Below, piece after piece: positions 1-10,004 of a stretch of DNA of 10,004 nt. Origin of the DNA: Sulfurimonas sp. (GTDB taxonomy: Bacteria > Campylobacterota > Campylobacteria > Campylobacterales > Sulfurimonadaceae). Location of the stretch: NCBI GenBank assembly GCA_003978465.1, contig QNZS01000073.1, forward strand, positions 1 through 10,004, read 5' to 3'. Each line of letters starts with the position of its first letter. Positions within the stretch are counted from its first letter, which is position 1. The notes beneath the pieces were generated by a model that was given only the letters and a program-made list of their open reading frames with translations, did no database searches and was not told the DNA's origin. Both the position numbers and the translations under genes were made by a program.

Positions 1-306
1 GAAGATCTCGGAGCCTCTCAGTTTAGAATACTATGGGAAATTGACTTACCTCTGGCTTCTCCGGGGATTGTTGTTGGTTCTCTTCTCAGTTTTGTCCTAG
101 CTGCTGGTGCTTTAGCTGAATCTAAATTGTTAGGTGGACAGGCTATTATTGTTTTTGCAGACGAGGTAGAAACAGCATTTACATATGGCCAGAACTGGCC
201 ACTTGGTTCAGCCCTAGCAATGATATTAATTCTGATTATAGGAATTCTTGCATTTTTCTCGATTACTAAGATAGATTTAGATACAATGATGGGGAGAAGA
301 CATTAA
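1..306 (+). CDS. ABC transporter permease, 3' partial (PotB-like, spermidine/putrescine-family inner membrane component)
   Basis: Frame 1 is open from base 1 to TAA at 304-306. Translation EDLGASQFRILWEIDLPLASPGIVVGSLLSF... carries the EAA-loop signature of ABC importer permeases (E-x-LGAS...F..I.LP...PGI) followed by a hydrophobic C-terminal TM segment. The stop overlaps the next permease start (TAATG). Confidence 0.8.
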   Translation, partial: EDLGASQFRILWEIDLPLASPGIVVGSLLSFVLAAGALAESKLLGGQAIIVFADEVETAFTYGQNWPLGSALAMILILIIGILAFFSITKIDLDTMMGRRH

Positions 307-1100
307 TGAGATCATCACGAAAAACCGTGTACTTTCTTCATGCATATGGAGTATTGGCTATTTTCTTTCTTTATTTACCACTTGTTTCCGTTTTTTACGC
401 TTCTATCTCAAAAACGAGATATTTATCCTTTCCAATACGGAGGTACGCGACACATTGGTATTTGAAGGCATTAGAAAGTCCTACAGTCTCAAATTTGGTC
501 GAAACATCGCTGAAAATAGCTATAATTGTCACAGTCATTTCTATGCTAGTTGGTTTCTTTGGGGCCTTAGCATACGCAAGATATCACTGGAAGTATAGAA
601 ACGTATTTCAAAAAATCATTATTTTGCCAATTTTTTTTCCACAAGCAGTGCTTGGTCTGGCGTTGTTGATTTGGTTTAACTCCATTGGATTAATACCTTC
701 TTGGAAAACTGCTGTTGTGGCTCATCTTGTATGGATTGCACCCATTTCAACATTAATAATCGCTATCCGTGCATATAGCTTTGATCCTGCACTTGAGGAA
801 GCGGCCAGAGATATGGGAGCAACTACTTGGACAATTATGCGTGAAATTACAGTACCCTTGCTAATGCCTGGAGTCATATCTGCTGGATTATTCTCTTTTC
901 TTCTAAGTTGGGGGAATTTCCCATTATCTTTATTTACTACTGGTGCAGACTCTACACTACCTGAATGGCTTTATGCGAAAATGGTTTCGGGTTATTCGCC
1001 TTTAGTTCCATCTGTGGGAATTATTTCTATCAGTGCCTCAGTTATTCTGATAATCATTGCATATACTGTAACTAAATTAGTAGCATCAGTTAGTAAGTGA
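306..1100 (+). CDS. ABC transporter permease (PotC-like, polyamine/amino-compound importer family)
   Basis: 264 aa, about six hydrophobic segments, EAA motif EEAARDMGATTWTIMREITVPLLMPGV. Translationally coupled to the upstream permease. Confidence 0.85.
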   Translation: MRSSRKTVYFLHAYGVLAIFFLYLPLVSVFYASISKTRYLSFPIRRYATHWYLKALESPTVSNLVETSLKIAIIVTVISMLVGFFGALAYARYHWKYRNVFQKIIILPIFFPQAVLGLALLIWFNSIGLIPSWKTAVVAHLVWIAPISTLIIAIRAYSFDPALEEAARDMGATTWTIMREITVPLLMPGVISAGLFSFLLSWGNFPLSLFTTGADSTLPEWLYAKMVSGYSPLVPSVGIISISASVILIIIAYTVTKLVASVSK

Positions 1101-1135
1101 CTAATGACAAATTTGCTTATAAAAACTAAAAACTC

Positions 1136-1141
1136 AAGGAG
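1136..1141 (+). promoter_or_regulatory. Shine-Dalgarno (AAGGAG) for the SDR gene
   Basis: AAGGAG 5 nt upstream of ATG at 1147. Confidence 0.6.
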
Positions 1142-1146
1142 AAAAA

Positions 1147-1926
1147 ATGTTTACTAGCATCAAGGGGCGTTCTGTTATCGTTACAGGTGCATCCAAAGGT
1201 ATAGGAAGGGGAATTGCCAATGTATTTGCTTTGCAAGGTGCAAAGGTGATGGTGGTGGCCCGTGGAGAGGAGGAGGCAAAAGCAACTGTTGATGAAATCC
1301 GTTCAAAGAAAGGGATTGCGGAAATGCAGTTGTGCGATGTGACAGATTGGGAAGCGGTGGAGGAAATGGTGACAGCAACTGAATCGGAGTTTGGAAGTGT
1401 TGATATACTTTGCGCAAATGCGGGGATATTCCCTCAAACTAAAATATTTGAAATGGATCCAGAGGAGTGGGACCAAGTTATGAAAACTAATCTGAAAAGT
1501 GCTTTTTTGTGTGTAAAAGCCTGTATTCCGCAATTTAAAAAGAAAAGAAATGGGCGGATTATTCTAACTTCATCTATAACTGGGCCCGTAACTGCTTACC
1601 CAGGCTGGTCTCATTACGGAGCTTCCAAATCGGGACAACTGGGATTCATGAAGACCGCAGCGATGGAACTCTCGAAGTATGGTACTACTATAAATGCTGT
1701 ATTGCCTGGTAATATTTTCACAGAAGGATTACAGGATTTAGGACAAGATTATTTAGATTCCATGGCGGCTACAATTCCTCTAAAACGTCTTGGTGTGGTT
1801 GAAGATATTGGTAACGCAGCATTATTTTTTGCTTCTGATGAAGCCTCCTACATCACAGGTCAGACTTTGATAGTAGATGGCGGACAAATTCTTCCTGAAT
1901 CTCTGGAAGCAATTGAAGAAATATAA
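1147..1926 (+). CDS. short-chain dehydrogenase/reductase (classical SDR); candidate amino-alcohol/aminoketone dehydrogenase
   Basis: N-terminal Rossmann motif TGASKGIGRGIA (TGxxxGxG), NAG motif (CANAGI), catalytic S (TSSITG) and YxxxK (YGASKSG), C-terminal IVDGG. About 13-aa extension beyond the usual SDR end. Confidence 0.85.
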   Translation: MFTSIKGRSVIVTGASKGIGRGIANVFALQGAKVMVVARGEEEAKATVDEIRSKKGIAEMQLCDVTDWEAVEEMVTATESEFGSVDILCANAGIFPQTKIFEMDPEEWDQVMKTNLKSAFLCVKACIPQFKKKRNGRIILTSSITGPVTAYPGWSHYGASKSGQLGFMKTAAMELSKYGTTINAVLPGNIFTEGLQDLGQDYLDSMAATIPLKRLGVVEDIGNAALFFASDEASYITGQTLIVDGGQILPESLEAIEEI

Positions 1927-1944
1927 CAAAAATGGAGAAATATT

Positions 1945-2949
1945 ATGGTTGATAGTCAGCAATCTCATTTCATGCTGATAGATCATCTTGGTGAATTAGC
2001 TAATTCTTCACTTAAATTGTGGGAGGTCCCCGGTGAAGCTTCAGCAAAATTGATCAATTTCTCAGAAAATGCAACATATCTTGTTTCGTCGTCTAAAGGT
2101 TACCGGTCTATTCTAAGAATTCATCGTGAAAATTACCACACTAAGCCTGCAATAGCATCAGAAATAGCTTGGACTCGTGCTTTGAACAAAGAAAGTGAAG
2201 TTGAAACGCCAAACATCATTCCGGGGAGAGATAATCAAGATATTCAACAAGGCAAAGTTGATGGTTTGAAAAACAACCGTTACATGGTTATGTTCGAGTA
2301 TGTTGAAGGAGAAGAACCCAATGAAGAACAGGATCTCGTTGGACCATTTGAAGAACTAGGTGAAATTAGTGCTAAAACCCACATACATTCCATTGGCTGG
2401 AATCGACCAAATTACTTTGAAAGGCTTGAATGGAACATAGATGCTTTTTTTGGTTCAAAGCCAATTTGGGGCAAATGGCAAGATGCACCAGCAATGGAAA
2501 AACCTGTTTTAAAATTGCTAATTCAGCAGGAAGATCTTATTGTTAAGCGTATAAAAAAATTTGGAAGGGGATGTGGAAAGTTCGGTCTTATTCATGCTGA
2601 TATGAGACTAGCAAATCTATTGATTCATGAAGGTAAAACTCGCCTTATTGATTTTGACGATTGCGGAATAGGCTGGTTCTTATATGACTTCGCTGCTGGG
2701 ATCAGTTTTATGGAAGATAATCCAACAGTTGAAACACTAAAAGATGCTTGGGTGAGGGGATATAGAAATGTTAGTTCTCTTTCGAATGAAGAAGAAAAAG
2801 AAATAGATACTTTCATCATGCTCCGTAGAATGGCGCTATTGGCATGGATTGGTTCTCATTCAGATACTGATTTGGCCAAAGAACAAGGGCCTGAATTTAC
2901 GAAAGTCTCAGGAGAACTTGCTGAAAAATTCATGATAAAAATGGGGTAA
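1945..2949 (+). CDS. APH/choline-kinase-fold phosphotransferase; candidate amino-alcohol kinase (1-amino-2-propanol or ethanolamine kinase)
   Basis: Brenner motif LIHADMRLANLLI (HxDxxxxN) and Mg-binding IDFDDCGIG (D-F-D), typical of PF01636 kinases. N-terminal ...NATYLV...ILRIHRE nucleotide-lobe pattern. GGAGA RBS 6 nt upstream. Confidence 0.75.
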   Translation: MVDSQQSHFMLIDHLGELANSSLKLWEVPGEASAKLINFSENATYLVSSSKGYRSILRIHRENYHTKPAIASEIAWTRALNKESEVETPNIIPGRDNQDIQQGKVDGLKNNRYMVMFEYVEGEEPNEEQDLVGPFEELGEISAKTHIHSIGWNRPNYFERLEWNIDAFFGSKPIWGKWQDAPAMEKPVLKLLIQQEDLIVKRIKKFGRGCGKFGLIHADMRLANLLIHEGKTRLIDFDDCGIGWFLYDFAAGISFMEDNPTVETLKDAWVRGYRNVSSLSNEEEKEIDTFIMLRRMALLAWIGSHSDTDLAKEQGPEFTKVSGELAEKFMIKMG

Positions 2950-3019
2950 CTCCTTGATGTTAAAATTAGTAACGCTATCAATTCTAATCAGTATTAATAT
3001 TAAGGTTTAACCTCAAAAA

Positions 3020-3634
3020 CTATTTATTTTTAATCAAATCATCAATAGCACTTTGAGCAATGACCATATCTTCCTTTCTTCCAGACATAAAAACTCTTCC
3101 GGAAGCACCAATCATTTGTACATCATTGATTATAGCTTGCGGTGCAGCTCTTTCAGCCTCATTGGCTGCTTTGCAAGCAAACAAAGCTGGAGTCATTTCA
3201 CAAACGAGTAATGATGATCCAGAGATCAACATTGAAGCTGATCTTGTCCGATTTAAAATAATAGAATGTTGATCTGATATATTTTCAATAATATCACGGT
3301 ACAATATCTTTGGAAGTAGTTGATCAGAAGGTTTTGCACTGATACCATCCAGAATGGCTTTCCCAGCAGACTCCAGTTCAGCTTCAATGCTTGAGTGGAG
3401 TTCCAGCAATCCAAACTGACGTTCAGTAAACAAAATTCCTGGTTCCATGTCAGGTGAGGCTTTAAGTGCCAAATCTACTATTCTATGGATTGATAATGCT
3501 GGTGCAACTTCAACAATTAAACTATGTTCACCAGCATAAACTGGATATCCTCTTGCACGAGTTGGACTACTTAAGTAAGCAGCAAACTGTGGTTGTAAGT
3601 CCAAGATTGGTAAATAGACCCTCAGTTCAGTCAT
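3020..3634 (-). CDS. tandem BMC-domain shell protein (BMC-T), possibly permuted EutL/PduB-like
   Basis: 204 aa with two consecutive segments following the BMC-domain pattern (beta-strand / A-rich helix ...ALKAS..., ...ACKAANEAERA... / G-rich hairpin / A-rich helix). N-terminal LPILDLQPQF resembles the EutL N-terminus. Paralogue of ORF 4763..5371. Confidence 0.55.
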   Translation of the reverse strand: MTELRVYLPILDLQPQFAAYLSSPTRARGYPVYAGEHSLIVEVAPALSIHRIVDLALKASPDMEPGILFTERQFGLLELHSSIEAELESAGKAILDGISAKPSDQLLPKILYRDIIENISDQHSIILNRTRSASMLISGSSLLVCEMTPALFACKAANEAERAAPQAIINDVQMIGASGRVFMSGRKEDMVIAQSAIDDLIKNK

Positions 3635-3687
3635 TAATATTTATTCTTGTATATTTTATTCAAAAATAATTGAGCATAATCTTATTG

Positions 3688-3969
3688 TTATTTCCCGTCA
3701 AGAGAGAAGTATTTCCCTAGGTCGGTATGGGGCCGTGGTATCACATGAACAGAAATGAGTTCTCCTACTTCATTAGCAGTTTCTGCTCCTGCTTCAGTTG
3801 CTGCCTTTACAGCGCCAACATCACCTTTTATGATAACTGATACAAGGCCATCACCAACCTCTTCCCTTCCAGCAATGGTTACATTAGCTGCTTTAACCAT
3901 TGCATCCGCAGCAGCAAGTGATGCGACATAACCTTTTGTTTCAATCATTCCTATAGCTTGATTGGACAT
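3688..3969 (-). CDS. BMC-H hexameric shell protein (PduA/EutM/CcmK family)
   Basis: 93 aa. [26 protein letters not shown]...[13 protein letters not shown]...VHVIPRPH is the canonical PF00936 signature. Confidence 0.92.
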
Positions 3970-3976
3970 GAGACTT

Positions 3977-3982
3977 TCTCCT
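3977..3982 (-). promoter_or_regulatory. Shine-Dalgarno (AGGAGA on minus strand) for the BMC-H gene
   Basis: Plus-strand TCTCCT, 7 nt upstream (in the mRNA) of the BMC-H ATG (3967-3969). Confidence 0.6.
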
Positions 3983-4069
3983 ATTTGTGTTTTGGCTTTT
4001 AGGCCAGTTTGCGCCGCTATTGTTTGCTAACGGCAATGGATCGATTTGAAGAAGTTTTTGCCATTTACA

Positions 4070-4312
4070 TTACTCCTTCTCATCAATAGAACCAATGATT
4101 AGAGAATCAATTGGTGCCTTGAATTCTGTAAAATAACCGGCTGCAACAGAACCTTGAGTTAACAATACCGCTTCTCCTACGGCACATCCTAACGGGTCGT
4201 AAGCAATAATATTTTCACCGCTTTCAACTTCTACTTCCAAATACCCTCCCTTGGGAAGCTTATCAACATGTTTAGATGACCAAATTTGGCCTTTTACCCT
4301 TCCTCTGATCAT
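4070..4312 (-). CDS. BMC vertex protein (BMC-P pentamer, EutN/PduN/CcmL family)
   Basis: 80 aa. MIRGRVKGQIWSSKH...GEAVLLTQGSVAAG matches the PF03319 size and pattern (N-terminal IxGxVxG). 4-nt overlap with the upstream gene. Confidence 0.85.
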   Translation of the reverse strand: MIRGRVKGQIWSSKHVDKLPKGGYLEVEVESGENIIAYDPLGCAVGEAVLLTQGSVAAGYFTEFKAPIDSLIIGSIDEKE

Positions 4313-4755
4313 ATTTGTGTCCTTTCCATTTTTATCCCCTTTTTACGTAACTCATCTTTTGCCAAAGGGGTTAATTTAGCATTTTTTAAAACCTGCAAAA
4401 CAGTAATATTTTCATCCAATTTTGCTATATCATATTCTGTAATCAAACCATCTTCTATTTTGTTTGAAGTAGGATGAGAAGTACAAGATCTACTATTTAA
4501 ATTAGCAGATGATGGCACATCTAAATGAAAAATAATATCCCCATTTTCAATGTTTGAAAATCCATCAGTTTCTCTTACAATATTCAATATTTTTTTAACA
4601 AATTTCATTAGATCTTCATCCGTTCTGATAGAGACTATTACTTCTCTAGTAGTTTTCTGATCCAACGAAACTGACTCCTTGTTGATTGAAGCTATCTCTT
4701 CTACCAACAATTCACGTATTATTTTTCTAATTTCTTTCCCCACAGTTGGCCTCAT
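4309..4755 (-). CDS. hypothetical 148-aa protein with N-terminal amphipathic helix (encapsulation-peptide-like); BMC-associated protein of unknown function
   Basis: Embedded between shell genes and coupled to the vertex gene. N-terminal GKEIRKIIRELLVEEIASI has i/i+3/i+4 hydrophobic periodicity. No catalytic motif recognised by eye. C-terminal ...LKNAKLTPLAKDELRKKGI. Confidence 0.5.
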   Translation of the reverse strand: MRPTVGKEIRKIIRELLVEEIASINKESVSLDQKTTREVIVSIRTDEDLMKFVKKILNIVRETDGFSNIENGDIIFHLDVPSSANLNSRSCTSHPTSNKIEDGLITEYDIAKLDENITVLQVLKNAKLTPLAKDELRKKGIKMERTQI

Positions 4756-4762
4756 CTATTGT

Positions 4763-5371
4763 TCATTGTTTTCGTAAGGCCAACTCAGCAGCTTCACGCG
4801 CGTTACGTATCTCAGCTTCGCTACCAGACAGGTAAAGTCGACCATTTGCACCAATCATACGATAGTCAATTATTTTTATATTAGCTTTTTTTTCTGCTTC
4901 ATTGCAGGCTAAAATTGCGTAGGATGCTGGTTGGCATTCCAATAGATAAAGAGACTCCCCTCCTAAAATCATCGAACCTAACTTATTTCGATTAATTAAA
5001 TAAGCATGTTGGTTTTCGACTCGCGTAACTATCTTTGAAGCAAGAATAGTTGCTGGCTTAGCATCTTTGGGAGTCGCTCCTAAACTTTTCAATACTGCTT
5101 CTGCACTTGCTTTGACTTCTGCTGTAGAATCGGCATGAAACTCTAGATACCCAAATTGACGTTCTACAACCAAAATGCCAGCCTTAACATTTGCGCCTTT
5201 CAAAGCAACATCTGTTAAAGCCTCAATGTCTAAACCAGGTGCAATTTCAATGATCTGAGACGCCATATTTTTACGAGGCAATGAGCCTCTCATCCAAGTT
5301 GCAATATAAGCCAAAGTTTGAGGTTGCAACTGATCAATGAATATAAAAGAACGTAATTCAGCCATGTACAC
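4763..5371 (-). CDS. tandem BMC-domain shell protein (BMC-T), paralogue of 3020..3634
   Basis: 202 aa. Two BMC-like segments (SQIIEIAPGLDIEALTDVALKGANVKA...; ...AILACNEAEKKANIKIIDYRMIGANGRLYLSGSEAEIRNA). Shares the N-terminal ELR...D(Q)LQPQ..AY motif with the other BMC-T. Confidence 0.55.
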   Translation of the reverse strand: MYMAELRSFIFIDQLQPQTLAYIATWMRGSLPRKNMASQIIEIAPGLDIEALTDVALKGANVKAGILVVERQFGYLEFHADSTAEVKASAEAVLKSLGATPKDAKPATILASKIVTRVENQHAYLINRNKLGSMILGGESLYLLECQPASYAILACNEAEKKANIKIIDYRMIGANGRLYLSGSEAEIRNAREAAELALRKQ

Positions 5372-5374
5372 AAA

Positions 5375-6952
5375 TCATTTTTTCAGAACATTCTTAAGCT
5401 CTTCCGCAATCAATTTACGGAGTTCTTCTCTGTTCACATTATCAATTGAGAAACTGGTGCTTGTCGAGGTTGTATCCACTCGACGAGACTTTGGTGAACC
5501 TGGTACTCCATCTGATGGAGACCTTGGCAATGGACCGTCTAATGATAAAGACAGTTCATTAAATTTACCAAAAGCTACAGACGGATCTGAATTATAAGCA
5601 ATTTGTGTCCAATGAATTAGATGTTGTGGACCAAGATTTTCACCAAGTGAACTCCTCCCATAAAATCCAGTACCTATGGTAAATGATGGAGCCAGATTGG
5701 TGTTAAACCCTGATGCCCCTAAACTACAAGAGGCATTTACTACTACTCGATAACATTCGACTCTTGATGCAAAATCAAGAATCATTCTCTCGTTTTGACT
5801 ATGTATGACAGCCGAATGACCAGCACCCGTTGCTCTAAGCGTAGCCCTTGACTGAGCGATTGCTTGTTTGGGACTGTTTGCAACATAAAAAGACAGTACA
5901 GGGCAAAGTTTTTCTCTAGCTAACGGTTCTTCAATACCGATACTGTTAATTGGTGTTACAAGGATTAGTGTTTTTTTGGGAACCCGGATGCCGCATTCAC
6001 GTGCAATCCAAACTGCATCACGGCCTAAAGCCTCAACGTTAAAGCCATTGGGGTGAAAAAGATAATTGCGTATTTGTACTACCTCATTATTATTGCAAAT
6101 ATAGGCTCCTTCATTTTTCAAACTTTTGCGAAGGGGTTTGTCAACATCCGTCAAAGTGATGAGGTTAGATTCACTGGTACAAAGTACGGAATTGTCAAAA
6201 CTTTTAGATGTCACAATTTGATTTGCTGCCAATGCAATATCTGCCGATGAATCAACGAATACAGGCGCATTACCTGGACCAACTCCTATGGCCGGATTAG
6301 AAGAAGAATAAGCTGCACGAACCATTGCTGTACCACCAGTTGCCAGGATCACGTTCGTTTTTGGTGATGACATGAATTCTTCTATCAACGGAATAGACGG
6401 GGTTTCTAATACTTGTATTGCCCCCTCAGGCGCTCCAGAAGAAATTGCAGCCTCTGTCAAAATTCGAACTGCATCTATACATGATTTCTTTGCTGCTGGA
6501 TGTGGGCTAATAACAATTGAGTTTCGTGTAATTAGTGCAAGAATAATTTTAAAATTCAGTGTTGAAATAGGATTTGTCGATGGAATCAAAGCAAATATTA
6601 CTCCCGCAGGTCTTGGGATTTCTACAATTTTCTTTTCTTCTTTAACACGCATCGAAACAAGGTCTTGCTCTCTATAATAATCTACTAATGGTTTTGCTGT
6701 GAACTCATTTTTCAGCTTCTTGTGTGAAACTACCCCAAAACCTGTCTCAACAACAACTTGTTCGGCCCATTCCCCCGCATGACTATGGGCAACGTTGGCT
6801 ACGGCATCAACAATTTTCATTGTTCTTTTTTTATCGAATCTCTGAAATATATATGATGCCCACCGCGCTCGCTCTAAAACTATGTCAGCACGCCCCGATA
6901 AAGATGCTTGAGATTCTGAGATATCAACTAGAGTTCTGATTTGTGGTTCCAT
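5375..6952 (-). CDS. CoA-acylating aldehyde dehydrogenase (PduP/EutE-like) with C-terminal extension: P/S/T-rich linker plus amphipathic helix
   Basis: 525 aa. ALDH-fold blocks (IVISPHPAAKKS..., ATGGTAMVRAAY..., active-site context FDNSVLCTSESNLI, ...GTGFYGRSSLGEN). The last ~55 aa are GPLPRSPSDGVPGSPKSRRVDTTSTSTS...NREELRKLIAEELKNVLKK. The start codon overlaps the upstream stop (TGATG). Confidence 0.85.
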   Translation of the reverse strand: MEPQIRTLVDISESQASLSGRADIVLERARWASYIFQRFDKKRTMKIVDAVANVAHSHAGEWAEQVVVETGFGVVSHKKLKNEFTAKPLVDYYREQDLVSMRVKEEKKIVEIPRPAGVIFALIPSTNPISTLNFKIILALITRNSIVISPHPAAKKSCIDAVRILTEAAISSGAPEGAIQVLETPSIPLIEEFMSSPKTNVILATGGTAMVRAAYSSSNPAIGVGPGNAPVFVDSSADIALAANQIVTSKSFDNSVLCTSESNLITLTDVDKPLRKSLKNEGAYICNNNEVVQIRNYLFHPNGFNVEALGRDAVWIARECGIRVPKKTLILVTPINSIGIEEPLAREKLCPVLSFYVANSPKQAIAQSRATLRATGAGHSAVIHSQNERMILDFASRVECYRVVVNASCSLGASGFNTNLAPSFTIGTGFYGRSSLGENLGPQHLIHWTQIAYNSDPSVAFGKFNELSLSLDGPLPRSPSDGVPGSPKSRRVDTTSTSTSFSIDNVNREELRKLIAEELKNVLKK

Positions 6953-8229
6953 CAGTGTATACTCCTCCGGTTTCTGACCCCAAGGACTTCCTCTCGTGCT
7001 TGTTCAATTCCTATTTGCACCCTTCCTAAAAGTTCCTCACACTCCGACTGTGTCATTAACAAACCTGGTTTGAACTGAAGCACACTTGGGTCAAGTGCTG
7101 AAAAAATTGCCCAAACACCGTTTTCATAAAGATATTTCATAACCGGTTTTGCACCTTGTTCATGACTGAACTCTAAACCCATAATGAGACCGTGTTGACG
7201 AATACCTATAAAGAAATCCGAATACTCTTCCATAATTTCATCCAAACCTGATCGAATATAATCAGAAATAAAATGAACTACAGACCGAACTTCTGGACGT
7301 TGGACGATTTCAAGAGTTTTCATTGCTACCACACATCCAAGCTCTGCCCCACCCATCGTTGACATATGACCAAAACCATCTTCTTTTAACCAGCCACTAC
7401 ATTTTTCTGAAATTAAGACACAGGCAATTGGGTACATACCTCCAGAAATTCCTTTGCCGGTAACCATAATGTCAGGCTGGACTTTATACTTAGTACATCC
7501 CCAAAGTTCTCCTGTACGCATTAGACCTGTTTGAACTTCATCAGCTATATATAAGGTGTCGTATCGTTCACAAAGTTGTTTGACTGATGGAAGGTATCCT
7601 TCCTCTGGCATTGGGAAACCATATGTTGCTGGGATAGTTTCCATAATTACTGCAGCCACGTCTCGTCTTTTTAGAGCATCTTCCATTGTGTTGAGATCAT
7701 TGAACGGAACTTGGACAAATTCACCAACAGTATCTTCCGATAAAAATAATTTGGAAAAACGGTCATCTCCAGTTTTAACAGCCAGTCCTGTGTGACCATG
7801 ATAAGCTTTGATTATTGACACAATTTTTCTTCTCTGTGTGGCGTGACGTGCAGTTTTAAGCGCAATATCAACAGCTTCTCCGCCCCCTGAACCATATGCT
7901 GTATATCTCAACTCCGGACCAGGTGCACTCTCAGCCAAAGCCTCTGCTAAGGCAGTCCGTGCAAGTGCCGGAAAATGATGATTACCCATATCAAAGCGAG
8001 AAGTCCCAGCTTTTAGTACCTCAACCAACTCTGGATGTCGGTGCCCCAAATTATAGGTTCCTCCATTTAGATGGACATCAATCAAACGCCGACCATCCAT
8101 ATCATGAAGATAATATTTCTCTCGATGATCGATCACAAGATCAATCCCCATATCTTGCCAATCTTGTGTTTTTCCAGGATTCCAGAACGTTTTAGAACGT
8201 TCTAGAAAATCAATTTTTTCTTGACTCAT
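6952..8229 (-). CDS. class-III aminotransferase-fold PLP-dependent enzyme; candidate amino-alcohol O-phosphate phospho-lyase (or omega-transaminase)
   Basis: 425 aa. YGSGGGEAVDIALKTAR (PLP phosphate pocket), DEVQTGLMRTGELWG (class-III DEVQTGxGRTG block), candidate Schiff-base Lys in DIMVTGKGISGG. Confidence 0.8.
   Translation of the reverse strand: MSQEKIDFLERSKTFWNPGKTQDWQDMGIDLVIDHREKYYLHDMDGRRLIDVHLNGGTYNLGHRHPELVEVLKAGTSRFDMGNHHFPALARTALAEALAESAPGPELRYTAYGSGGGEAVDIALKTARHATQRRKIVSIIKAYHGHTGLAVKTGDDRFSKLFLSEDTVGEFVQVPFNDLNTMEDALKRRDVAAVIMETIPATYGFPMPEEGYLPSVKQLCERYDTLYIADEVQTGLMRTGELWGCTKYKVQPDIMVTGKGISGGMYPIACVLISEKCSGWLKEDGFGHMSTMGGAELGCVVAMKTLEIVQRPEVRSVVHFISDYIRSGLDEIMEEYSDFFIGIRQHGLIMGLEFSHEQGAKPVMKYLYENGVWAIFSALDPSVLQFKPGLLMTQSECEELLGRVQIGIEQAREEVLGVRNRRSIH
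6962..6968 (-). promoter_or_regulatory. Shine-Dalgarno (GGAGGAG) for the aldehyde dehydrogenase, inside the 3' end of the upstream gene
   Basis: Plus-strand CTCCTCC 9 nt upstream (mRNA sense) of the ATG at 6950-6952. Supports translational coupling. Confidence 0.6.
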
Positions 8230-8288
8230 TCTCTTTCATAGACAAGATGTGATTTAAGACGCAGGTCAAAGAGTTTTTCTAGCATCGA

Positions 8289-8302
8289 TAGTATTAATAC
8301 TA
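8289..8302. repeat. 14-bp perfect palindrome TAGTATTAATACTA in the operon upstream region (candidate operator)
   Basis: Self-complementary sequence about 60 bp upstream of the first operon gene. Overlaps the candidate -10. Confidence 0.4.
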
Positions 8303-8325
8303 AACATTGGGTATATTCCATTCAA
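8297..8325 (-). promoter_or_regulatory. candidate sigma70-type promoter of the minus-strand metabolosome operon (-35 TTGAAT, 17-nt spacer, -10 TAGTAT)
   Basis: Read on the minus strand: TTGAAT (plus 8320-8325), 17 nt, TAGTAT (plus 8297-8302), about 65 nt upstream of the ATG at 8229. Overlaps a 14-bp palindrome. Identified by eye only. Confidence 0.3.
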
Positions 8326-8384
8326 ATAACTATGTAAATAAGGTTGATAAAGGAAAATAATTTTTTTAAGAATCATATTGCGAC

Positions 8385-9614
8385 CTATGTATTTTGAATA
8401 GTTTTAACATAGTTTGCCCACCACACCATCATTTTTCTTCTTTCTTTTAGATACTTGTTTCTATTGTATCTATGTATTTTATTCAGTTCCGTGCATGCAA
8501 GTTGTTCCTCTATAACATTATGATACCAGAGACCGCTTTCACTCAATACCTCAGAAGCAAGAGTTCTGAGACCATTGATAGTGTTTCTTCCCGCGTATCC
8601 TAATCGATTTGAAAAATATAACAGTGTGTTTTCACTCATTGCTTTTTGTGAGTTACGGACTTGAGTAAATACATATCCATTCTTGCCGGAATATTCTTGC
8701 ATTTCTTTTAAGATACAAACTGCTTGAGAAGAAAGAGGAACATAATGTTCGCCTCTCATTTTCATTCTTGTTGATGGAATCACCCAAAGGGGTTCAGCAC
8801 AATCAATATCAAACTCACTCCAATCAGCAAAACGTAATTCTGAAGATCGAACGAAGGTTAATATAAGAAAGTTCATTGCAAGCACTGTAGATAGGTTTGT
8901 TACTTTGTCAGCTTTCATTCTTGAAAGAAATTCTGGAAGTTCTGAGATTGGAATTGAACTATGTGATTTTGGTTCCGGTTTTACAAAGGTCTTGTTTAGT
9001 CCTTTTGCTGGGTTGTTTATGCAAAGTTCATTAGTTTTTGCGTAGTTAAAAATTGATTCAAGTCTTTGCCGAATTCTATAACAGGTTTCGTGCTTCCCTA
9101 CGACTTCCAGTTTTTTTAACATTGAAATTACATCCTGTTTGTTGATCTTTACAATGGGTATTTCACCAAGATATGGAAAAACGTGGATGATAAGAGAATT
9201 GAATACAACCTTTGAATATTCCTTTGTCCATAAAGTTTCTTGTCTAACGTGCCATTCTTGGGCAACTTGTTGAAAAGTAAACCCTTTAATTTCTTCACGG
9301 CGTTTCTTTTTATCATAATTTTCTATATGCAAGCTACTCCTAAATCTTTTTTCATCAAGTGGATTGATCCCCTCCTTTATTTTTTTGTTTGCTTCATAAC
9401 GCCTAGATCTTGCTTCGGGCAATTTAACGTTTGGCCATTTCCCAAAAGATAATACTTTCTGTTTCCCTTCAAACCAAAATTGTAATTGCCAGTATTTTTT
9501 CCCATCAGGGTAAATCCTTAGGTACATGCCATCACCATCTGTCAATTTGTATTGTTTTTCTTTTGGTTTTGCCCGTTTAATTGCTAGCTCAGTAAGTTTA
9601 TTTGTACGATTCAT
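8385..9614 (-). CDS. int: tyrosine site-specific integrase, P4-like with DUF4102-type N-terminal arm-binding domain
   Basis: 409 aa. The N-terminus LTELAIKRAKPKEKQYKLTDGDGMYLRIYPDGKKYWQLQFWFEGKQKVLSFG is the typical P4-family integrase N-domain. The C-terminus carries box I R (LTFVRSSELRFADWSEFD), K (RMKMRGEHYVPLS), box II N-G-L-R, ...QLACTELNKIHRYNRNKYLKERRKMMVWWANY with the catalytic Tyr in HRYNR. Confidence 0.88.
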   Translation of the reverse strand: MNRTNKLTELAIKRAKPKEKQYKLTDGDGMYLRIYPDGKKYWQLQFWFEGKQKVLSFGKWPNVKLPEARSRRYEANKKIKEGINPLDEKRFRSSLHIENYDKKKRREEIKGFTFQQVAQEWHVRQETLWTKEYSKVVFNSLIIHVFPYLGEIPIVKINKQDVISMLKKLEVVGKHETCYRIRQRLESIFNYAKTNELCINNPAKGLNKTFVKPEPKSHSSIPISELPEFLSRMKADKVTNLSTVLAMNFLILTFVRSSELRFADWSEFDIDCAEPLWVIPSTRMKMRGEHYVPLSSQAVCILKEMQEYSGKNGYVFTQVRNSQKAMSENTLLYFSNRLGYAGRNTINGLRTLASEVLSESGLWYHNVIEEQLACTELNKIHRYNRNKYLKERRKMMVWWANYVKTIQNT

Positions 9615-9662
9615 GAAAAATTAATTATGTTGTATGTGTAAATTACCACTAAACTTTAATAG
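9468..9662. repeat. direct repeat copy A (~195 bp; int codons 1-49 plus ~48 bp upstream)
   Basis: Identical to 9810..10004 except for one mismatch (about 9563 vs 9905, K-to-I in the fragment). Coordinates read by eye, +/-1. Confidence 0.85.
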
Positions 9663-9809
9663 TTTACCACCATTATATAATACTAATTAACTATATATAT
9701 ATAATAAATATATCATATAGTTACAATGGATTATATATTGACCAAATGAGAAAAATTATATCTTATATCCTTTTTAAGGGAAACGAACCCGCGTTTAAAA
9801 TGATGCAAA
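9663..9809. other. AT-rich 147-bp spacer between repeat copies, containing a (TA)n tract
   Basis: ...actatatatatataataaatatatcatatag... with very low GC. No ORF. The sequence diverges from int immediately at the repeat boundary. Confidence 0.5.
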
Positions 9810-9957
9810 CTTCAAACCAAAATTGTAATTGCCAGTATTTTTTCCCATCAGGGTAAATCCTTAGGTACATGCCATCACCATCTGTCAATTTGTATTGTTT
9901 TTCTATTGGTTTTGCCCGTTTAATTGCTAGCTCAGTAAGTTTATTTGTACGATTCAT
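9763..9957 (-). pseudogene. truncated integrase 5' fragment (first 49 codons of the int N-domain, then out-of-context tail)
   Basis: MNRTNKLTELAIKRAKPIEKQYKLTDGDGMYLRIYPDGKKYWQLQFWFE is identical to the int N-terminus except K18I. It then reads into the AT-rich spacer (VCIILNAGSFPLKRI*). Confidence 0.75.
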
Positions 9958-10004
9958 GAAAAATTAATTATGTTGTATGTGTAAATTACCACTAAACTTT
10001 AATA
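9810..10004. repeat. direct repeat copy B (runs to the window edge; may extend further)
   Basis: See copy A. Truncated by the window end, so the true repeat length is unknown. Confidence 0.85.

Follow-up and report, generated by a model that had tools for sequence, protein, structure and literature searches.

A probable RMM2-type microcompartment locus with an inverted enzyme-shell block next to a tyrosine integrase

Gene content of the locus and its counterparts in Mycobacterium smegmatis

The stretch of DNA analysed here, called the window in the following, comprises 10,004 nt (positions 1 to 10,004 of contig QNZS01000073.1, assembly GCA_003978465.1, Sulfurimonas sp.). It harbours a bacterial microcompartment (BMC) locus, which a preliminary description made from the sequence alone had regarded as a B12-independent amino-alcohol metabolosome resembling the Rhodococcus/Mycobacterium microcompartment (RMM), in a host outside Actinobacteria. 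This is borne out by one-to-one matches to the RMM proteins of M. smegmatis. Our comparison with related loci suggests that the locus is very probably a member of the already named type RMM2/AAUM2 (aminoacetone/1-amino-2-propanol utilisation), located on an integrase-flanked island in uncultured marine bacteria.

The genes are arranged in two halves pointing toward each other. The plus strand begins with the truncated gene of a PotB-like ABC permease, of which the window edge leaves the 3' end (1-305; frame 1 open without a stop), followed by the genes of a PotC-like ABC permease of 264 aa (306-1100), a short-chain dehydrogenase/reductase (SDR; 1147-1926) and a kinase with the aminoglycoside phosphotransferase (APH) fold (1945-2949). 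The minus strand encodes, in the direction of transcription, a class-III-fold pyridoxal phosphate (PLP) enzyme, which is the signature enzyme and a putative amino-alcohol O-phosphate phospho-lyase (6952-8229), a CoA-acylating aldehyde dehydrogenase (AldDH) of 525 aa with a C-terminal extension (5375-6952), a tandem-domain BMC-T shell protein (4763-5371), a conserved 148-aa RMM protein (4309-4755), a BMC-P pentamer vertex protein (4070-4312), a BMC-H hexamer shell protein (3688-3969) and a second tandem-domain BMC-T protein (3020-3634). The start of the AldDH gene overlaps the stop of the PLP enzyme gene, and the stop of the 148-aa open reading frame (ORF) overlaps the BMC-P start by 4 nt. The GC content is 0.36-0.42 across the locus.

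Pfam profiles and sequence motifs agree with the enzyme assignments made previously. This applies to the SDR (PF00106, 7e-56; PF13561, 1e-63; motifs TGASKGIG and YGASK), the kinase (PF01636, 7e-23; HADMRLAN and DFD), the PLP enzyme (PF00202, 2e-72; DEVQTGLMRTG and a TGKG lysine) and the AldDH (PF00171, 1.5e-23). The best NCBIfam models for the AldDH are acetylating aldehyde dehydrogenases (3e-121) and AdhE (2e-129), all below their curated cut-offs, and the PotC-like permease matches PF00528 (1.4e-14) and, as best NCBIfam model, PotC (8e-35, below the curated cut-off). Profile scans of the window ORFs of at least 60 aa revealed no B12-dependent lyase, as already noted in the preliminary description, and no phosphotransacylase or alcohol dehydrogenase.

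The proposed shell set of one BMC-H, one BMC-P and two BMC-T proteins was likewise recovered, by profiles and by matches to M. smegmatis structures. The BMC-H protein matches PF00936 (3e-27) and has MSM0272 (5l38) as its best natural PDB match (7e-42, full length), while MSM0273 (5l37, 8e-22) is the only PDB match of the BMC-P protein, which also matches PF03319 (2.5e-16). Both BMC-T proteins are CcmP-like, and each prefers a different M. smegmatis paralogue. The protein encoded at 4763-5371 is orthologous to MSM0275 (5l39, 2e-83, versus 5suh, 1e-39; PF00936, 1.7e-8; CcmP, 7e-62), and that encoded at 3020-3634 to MSM0271 (5suh, 9e-74, versus 5l39, 4e-36). The latter has no Pfam match at E<=0.01 and is missed by PF00936, but it matches 5suh and CcmP (1.8e-50, below cut-off); the near-identical counterpart gene in locus L001 carries PF27545 (CsoS1D_N).

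As reference for RMM1 we used the M. smegmatis locus L089, which was fetched with a kinase sequence rebuilt from the alignment to PDB entry 6ef6. The window kinase matches 6ef6 over its full length (2e-76; next match 1e-11), and the best PDB matches of the SDR are 6ci8 (4e-91) and 6ci9 (1.3e-90). The rebuilt sequence shows 97% identity to the kinase encoded in the RMM1 locus, and we take 6ef6 to be the M. smegmatis aminopropanol kinase. A paper title reportedly names an M. smegmatis (S)-1-amino-2-propanol kinase, and the (S)-1-amino-2-propanol dehydrogenase of the RMM, an SDR, is said to have been characterised.

In L089, a permease gene on the opposite strand is followed by the genes of the PLP enzyme, AldDH, BMC-T, a 173-aa protein, BMC-P, BMC-H, BMC-T, kinase, SDR and a GntR regulator. 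Every enzyme and shell protein of the window has a one-to-one orthologue in this RMM1/AAUM1 locus (MSMEG_0271-0275 region), and the block order from the PLP enzyme to the last BMC-T is the same. The two loci differ in that kinase and SDR genes are downstream of the shell genes and co-oriented with them in RMM1, whereas they are on the opposite strand to the shell genes in the window. Neither the amino-acid permease nor the GntR regulator of RMM1 was found in the window, which has an ABC importer instead. Judged by orthology, the RMM enzyme logic predicted for the window locus is correct.

The encapsulation-peptide-like tail that had been proposed for the AldDH is supported by an alignment of its C-terminus from 20 RMM2 loci, including the window and L011, and from M. 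smegmatis. The C-terminal extension consists of a GPLPxAPxDGVPG motif, a variable Pro/Ser-rich linker and a terminal amphipathic helix. In the window this helix is REELRKLIAEELKNVLKK (5378-5434, minus strand); it is kept in all 20 RMM2 loci, and its M. smegmatis version is LRAELRALVVEELAQLIKR.

The 148-aa protein was assigned by family and position. Members of its family are encoded between BMC-T and BMC-P both in RMM2 loci and in M. smegmatis RMM1, where the protein of 173 aa as called (175 aa as extracted ORF) is too diverged from that of the window for BLAST. An N-terminal, encapsulation-peptide-like helix with the consensus DLRxLIRExLxEEL, similar in character to the AldDH helix, is conserved in RMM2 and RMM1. 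The family alignment A1 (16 members) also revealed a conserved C-terminus ending in TPLARDELRRRGIxIER, in which the T-P-L motif is invariant, and sub-threshold matches to PduM (8 of the 16 members, best 8e-5) and TIGR02536 (7 of 16). A profile search found no solved structure for this family. Three of the 16 members weakly match the model of EncB, an encapsulin cargo protein (best 1.8e-6); our guess is that the matching stretch is a helical, targeting-like segment.

Comparison with RMM2 loci and rearrangement of the window locus

The type RMM2/AAUM2 was named by Sutter et al. 2021 (Nat Commun 12:3809, PMC8217296), who found it in Proteobacteria and Ca. Marinimicrobia. Their work catalogued 32 RMM2 loci, including two phylum outliers (Epsilonproteobacteria and Ca. 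Marinimicrobia) that have an integrase (PF13356 and PF00589) beside the locus, and it gives one BMC-H, one BMC-P and two different BMC-Tdp as the shell set of RMM1. As RMM2 reference we chose L015 from strain CECT 8287, the strain number of which matches an RMM2 entry in their tree file. Relatives were collected in a one-genome-per-species scan, in which 279 species genomes encode a relative. For synteny, the window proteins were mapped onto the best 80 of the 279 relative loci, and Pfam-labelled contexts were read for examples.

All window proteins are closer to L015 than to RMM1 except BMC-H, which is a tie. The identities to L015 and to L089, respectively, are 84% and 66% for the PLP enzyme, 63% and 49% for the AldDH, 58% and 39% for the kinase, 71% and 56% for the SDR, 81% and 67% for one BMC-T and 75% and 58% for the other, 68% and 51% for BMC-P and 76% and 76% for BMC-H. 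The PLP enzyme is 74-86% identical to RMM2 enzymes, and thousands of close homologues, among them proteins of Paracoccaceae, Stappia, Afifella and Acidiferrobacter, share 80-86% identity with it. The window contains the shell set of RMM2, that is one BMC-H, one BMC-P and two different CcmP-like BMC-Tdp, together with its class-III PLP enzyme, acylating AldDH, APH-family kinase and SDR; it contains no B12 lyase, phosphotransacylase or alcohol dehydrogenase.

Nearly all of the best 80 loci are colinear in the order potB-potC-SDR-APH-PLP-AldDH-T-u148-P-H-T. A canonical RMM2 locus has a divergent AraC gene and, on one strand, genes for a binding protein, an ATPase, two permeases, SDR, kinase, PLP enzyme, AldDH, BMC-T, a protein of ~146 aa, BMC-P, BMC-H and BMC-T, often followed by an isochorismatase-family gene. 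Among loci whose sequence reaches far enough, the binding protein gene was present in 58 of 58, the ATPase gene in 57 of 58, the AraC gene in 44 of 54 and the isochorismatase gene in 40 of 71. The window encodes both permeases. The first shows 67-82% identity to its counterpart in RMM2 loci, and the PotC-like permease 68-76% to its counterparts in most of the best 80.

Overall, the window shares with RMM2 the enzymes, the C-terminal encapsulation peptide of the AldDH, the shell set, the ~148-aa protein and the permeases of a Pot-type ABC importer. The proteins are ~55-86% identical, with the exception of the fast-evolving 148-aa protein (~30-40%). The window has a GC content of 38%, whereas most relatives have 46-69%, but the colinear loci L082 and L085 are also at 36-39%. 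The main differences are that the window lineage has an inverted PLP-to-BMC-T block, lacks a direct repeat that is described below, and lacks the downstream isochorismatase gene, which was detected neither in the window nor in its close relatives. The published catalogue gives the gene order of RMM2 and is said to sort loci by protein-family content. With 279 species genomes in a single scan, compared to the 32 loci catalogued in 2021, RMM2/AAUM2 is widespread in marine Alpha- and Gammaproteobacteria.

With the EUT and PDU microcompartments the window has in common the aldehyde-trapping logic, an acylating AldDH with an encapsulation peptide, homologous BMC-H and BMC-P proteins and a PduM-like small protein. 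However, their signature enzymes, the B12-dependent ethanolamine ammonia-lyase or diol dehydratase, are absent from the ten window locus proteins scanned, phosphotransacylase and alcohol dehydrogenase are missing as well, and the window uses CcmP-like BMC-Tdp tiles, which classic EUT1 and PDU1 do not have (Sutter et al. 2021, PMC8217296).

In canonical RMM2 loci the PLP gene follows the kinase gene on one strand, whereas in the window the PLP-to-BMC-T block points toward the kinase. The single-strand gene order of RMM2 is kept within each half, and the PLP-to-T half is inverted. The left inversion junction is the 70-nt spacer between the convergent kinase and BMC-T ends (2950-3019), where the kinase gene and the last shell gene meet at their 3' ends; the right junction (8230-8384) is at the same time the upstream region of the PLP-shell operon. 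The same inverted arrangement was found at 95-99% nucleotide identity in L001, L009, L010, L011, L091, L092, L093, L095 and L096. Since it recurs across separately deposited assemblies, the inversion is not an artefact of a single assembly.

In most of the other loci fetched, a direct repeat of the form TGTCAA-N14-15-TGTCAA(G) is located 55-95 nt upstream of the PLP start (locus positions ~9908-9948 in L005, L007, L013 and most others). Many loci have a second copy between the AraC and binding-protein genes (~3700-4090), and several loci without a perfect copy have a version with one mismatch. No such repeat, one-mismatch versions included, is present at 8230-8384 of the window or in the group of its close relatives. 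We infer that the repeat is a two-site operator of the divergent AraC regulator, which would make the canonical locus a pair of regulated units; no mention of it was found in the literature consulted for RMM. RMM2 loci apparently consist of two units, each following a conserved TGTCAA repeat, which would explain why rearrangements recur at the boundary between kinase and PLP genes.

Other loci also vary at this position. In L064, L079, L081 and L088 the kinase and PLP genes are divergently oriented. Beside the PLP-shell block of L036, L040 and L072, neither a kinase nor a transporter was detected, and L070 has kept the upstream kinase while no adjacent transporter or SDR was detected.

Both inversion-junction spacers contain the near-palindrome AGTATTAATA(T/C)TAA (2990-3003 and 8290-8303). 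We regard it as probably an AT-rich chance match, because in L096 an insertion of 2 nt disrupts the right copy. It would be speculative to propose that the 5.3-kb block serves as an on/off switch that is inverted by the tyrosine recombinase encoded next to it, the sole hint being the AGTATTAATA(T/C)T junction sites. A scan for promoters and terminators was no richer than shuffled sequence (28 versus 28.9 and 5 versus 6.9), and no promoter was assigned.

Upstream of the importer genes, L010 and L011 extend the window arrangement by an ABC ATPase gene. In L011, frameshifted pieces of an IS5-type transposase (PF05598 and PF01609; L011:11948-13352) are located upstream of the ATPase gene, at the canonical site of the binding-protein and AraC genes. 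Neither of these two genes was seen in the available flanks of the window and its close relatives, among which L011 is the one reaching that far.

Several observations weigh against the assignment to RMM2 or against a working locus. The two halves are not oriented to each other as in the catalogued RMM2 loci, and the BMC-P gene of L009 (counterpart of 4070-4312), otherwise 99% identical, contains one in-frame stop, which could indicate a pseudogene or a sequencing error. Further, regulated expression and uptake are uncertain, since the upstream repeat is missing and L011 lacks adjacent binding-protein and AraC genes. The window copy might be a rearranged, decaying remnant on a mobile island without a working organelle. 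The split of the operon by inversion, the loss of the conserved upstream repeat, the transposase fragments at the expected binding-protein/AraC site of L011, the stop in the L009 BMC-P gene and the missing isochorismatase gene would fit such decay. Nevertheless, we consider a remnant unlikely. None of the eleven complete ORFs in the window is disrupted, and the ends of two gene pairs overlap in the way used for coupled translation. The dN/dS values of 0.09-0.15 point to purifying selection on the transporter-SDR-kinase arm (for the PotC-like permease 0.09 in comparison to L010 and L011), and members of the lineage, 95-99% identical, were found in many marine assemblies. Finally, the additional breaks at the kinase-PLP boundary in L064, L079, L081 and L088 suggest two separable transcription units. 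Thus, a working but rewired locus is more likely than a remnant.

Proposed pathway and role of the PLP enzyme

The pathway that we propose for the window follows the conversion of aminoacetone to propionyl-CoA, which was published as a proposal for RMM (PMC8156839) and which later reviews adopt. Based on homology and conserved linkage, the Pot-type ABC importer would take up the amine. The SDR, an orthologue of the RMM enzyme, would interconvert aminoacetone and (S)-1-amino-2-propanol, and the APH-fold kinase, an orthologue of the M. smegmatis aminopropanol kinase, would phosphorylate the amino alcohol. The class-III PLP enzyme could then eliminate phosphate and ammonia, yielding propionaldehyde. 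Inside a shell made of one BMC-H, one BMC-P and two BMC-Tdp proteins, the AldDH, targeted by its C-terminal helix, would convert the aldehyde into propionyl-CoA, as judged from its homologues. The PduM-like 148-aa protein with its targeting-like helix is also encoded.

The step assigned to the PLP enzyme was considered in the light of its relatives, which were searched among representatives of 50%-identity clusters. Among the best clusters listed, an RMM-like protein is 69% identical to the window enzyme, proteins of 600-800 aa 47-49%, standalone proteins 40-46% and ordinary class-III enzymes ~30-35%. The nearest full-length relatives listed outside RMM (45-49% identity) are fused to an APH domain or are fused or coupled to DUF6206. 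The long relatives P0122 and P0276 have a C-terminal APH kinase domain and P0123 has DUF6206, while the standalone relatives P0132 and P0129 have a DUF6206 gene immediately downstream (L107:4001-6208 and L108:4001-6222). DUF6206, to which no function has been assigned, is not called a kinase here, because searches gave neither a solved relative nor a match to a kinase family.

In most of the best 80 loci, the kinase gene adjoins the PLP gene. This near-universal adjacency, the PLP-kinase fusions and the title given to the mycobacterial kinase, which reportedly calls it an aminopropanol kinase, together favour a route in which a kinase acts before a phospho-lyase. It is therefore plausible to view the class-III PLP enzyme as the putative phospho-lyase of such a kinase-then-lyase route, and the natural fusions nearest to the signature enzyme strengthen this assignment.

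The same two-step logic, with a PLP-dependent 1,2-elimination yielding aldehyde, phosphate and ammonia, is that of pairs of a kinase and a class-III phospho-lyase (ETNPPL/PHYKPL type; bacterial APH-aminotransferase fusions such as NCBIfam PRK06148/PRK06149). The window kinase matches the fused PRK06149 model weakly (2.6e-10). The RMM PLP enzyme is 31-34% identical to multidomain relatives of ~1000-1160 aa, but the only one of these checked for domains (P0158, a more distant PLP-DUF6206 fusion at 34% identity) carries DUF6206 and not APH. The nearest relatives of the PLP enzyme form a separate set of PLP-APH and PLP-DUF6206 proteins, apart from these multidomain ones.

The same chemistry could act on a different physiological substrate in the marine hosts, namely ethanolamine or another small amino alcohol, with acetaldehyde and acetyl-CoA as products. 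The best family matches of the AldDH are acetaldehyde dehydrogenases, the kinase is just 39% identical to the mycobacterial one, so that its specificity may differ, and the PLP-APH fusion relatives match the choline/ethanolamine kinase model weakly, below the cut-off. Such a substrate nevertheless seems improbable to us, because an orthologue of the SDR is kept in essentially all loci; ethanolamine has no ketone partner on which an SDR could act, in contrast to the pair of aminoacetone and aminopropanol.

A transaminase route has also been proposed in the literature (Axen 2014; Ravcheev 2019). In this route the PLP enzyme would turn aminoacetone or aminopropanol into methylglyoxal or lactaldehyde, the AldDH would form pyruvyl- or lactyl-CoA, and the APH protein would act on the acyl product. 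Some of our data are in line with it and at the same time speak against a phospho-lyase. Among solved structures, the PLP enzyme is closest to aminotransferases acting on putrescine, acetylornithine and ornithine (4e-48 to 1e-39). The 60 PDB matches listed include no chain with phospho-lyase in its name, and the best NCBIfam matches are transaminase families. In addition, no experimental demonstration of phospho-lyase activity was found in the literature consulted for the window enzyme or any RMM orthologue. Enzymes for recycling NAD+ or CoA are not encoded in the window either, and their recycling is a known open problem for RMM.

Despite this, we judge the transaminase route to be quite unlikely. 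The window kinase is a clear orthologue of the published (S)-1-amino-2-propanol kinase, which gives the phosphate ester a role as substrate, and in sister-clade proteins a PLP domain and an APH kinase domain are joined in one chain. Enzymes of the APH fold use ATP to phosphorylate hydroxyl groups, and no phosphotransacylase activity is known for them. The later reviews that adopt the conversion of aminoacetone to propionyl-CoA also count against it.

Proposed novelty, integrase flank and possible mobility

The ABC importer, the shell complement and the 148-aa protein with its encapsulation-peptide-like helix had been taken in the preliminary description as signs of an undescribed metabolosome subtype. 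They are ordinary RMM2 features, as they are conserved across the RMM2 loci examined. The importer does replace the permease of M. smegmatis RMM1, but it does not distinguish the window, being present in essentially all of these loci. The shell complement had been called distinct and is exactly that of RMM1. In the 148-aa protein the helix is indeed there; the protein is not an extra one, as it was found in essentially all RMM2 loci and has a counterpart in RMM1. An undescribed subtype is therefore highly improbable even though, compared to RMM1, a permease is replaced by an importer and the gene order differs, and even though none of the other loci among the best 80 showed the inversion: exactly this gene set was named RMM2/AAUM2 in 2021 for Proteobacteria and Marinimicrobia, and a 98-99% identical locus is present in the public metagenome-assembled genome (MAG) UBA8229, labelled Neomarinimicrobiota. 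Our result mainly corrects the record in that the locus is not a new metabolosome type. What retains interest is the inversion with its regulatory loss, the TGTCAA repeats of the canonical loci and the possible movement of a whole-organelle block between deep-sea lineages.

The preliminary description was silent on the inversion of half the locus and on the integrase next to it. The gene of this tyrosine integrase of 409 aa (8385-9614, minus strand) immediately precedes that of the PLP enzyme and has the same orientation. The integrase domains are exactly PF13356 (2e-22), PF22022 (1.5e-22) and PF00589 (3.4e-13), in agreement with the integrase that Sutter et al. 2021 describe next to RMM2 outliers. 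Contigs of 9-17 kb with 97-99% identity to the window (L009, L010 and L011) belong to MAGs labelled Gammaproteobacteria (two, CB27_Tmax.92 and UWMA-0062) and Neomarinimicrobiota (one, UBA8229). That the low-GC, integrase-linked version, which circulates in populations of the deep ocean, was binned into different phyla indicates either a recent horizontal transfer of the whole organelle locus or a binning artefact. The Marinimicrobia outlier catalogued in 2021 may plausibly be UBA8229.

The similarity to these contigs is not uniform. Window positions 4-1814 are 88.7% identical to L010, whereas positions 1885-9198 are ~99% identical; L011 shows the same split gene by gene, with an alignment extending to the window end. 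The breakpoint of this mosaic lies inside the 3' end of the SDR gene and not at the inversion junction. In the diverged permease-SDR arm, dS in comparison to L010 and L011 is 0.32-0.47 and dN/dS about 0.09-0.10. This mosaic divergence implies recombination between sublineages.

Based on these data, it is tempting to speculate that a complete block comprising kinase, PLP enzyme, AldDH, shell and integrase has recently been moving between distant deep-sea bacteria, uncoupled from the ancestral AraC-type control by inversion and repeat loss. We put this forward as a tentative and rather improbable reading. Its basis is the ~99% identity of positions 1885-9810 across MAG contigs labelled Gammaproteobacteria and Neomarinimicrobiota, with a difference of ~11% in the adjoining transporter arm. 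A phage vector found no support in scans of viral contigs, which revealed no relative of the PLP enzyme and a relative of the integrase at 34% only.

No tRNA genes were found in the window or its closest relatives. Among the wider relatives, L096 alone has one: this 20-kb marine contig, 95% identical to the whole window, starts with a tRNA-Arg(TCG) gene (L096:1-77) located ~0.9 kb before the integrase region. Of the features of tRNA-associated islands with P4-type integrases, the Arm-DNA-binding domain of the integrase is present, and a tRNA gene near the integrase was found in L096 only; no att-like direct repeat of this gene was detected in the sequence examined. Between the tRNA gene and the integrase region, L096 contains a truncated copy of the 175-aa ORF of L009. 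More distant relatives of the integrase adjoin tRNA-Ser genes.

At its end, the window contains a tandem duplication of 343 nt that includes the 5' end of the integrase gene (9467-10004; positions 9467-9661 and 9810-10004 are 99% identical). The duplicated unit consists of integrase codons 1-49, 47 nt upstream of them and a spacer of 148 nt. It is absent in L001, L009, L091 and L093 and present in L011, L092, L096 and L106.

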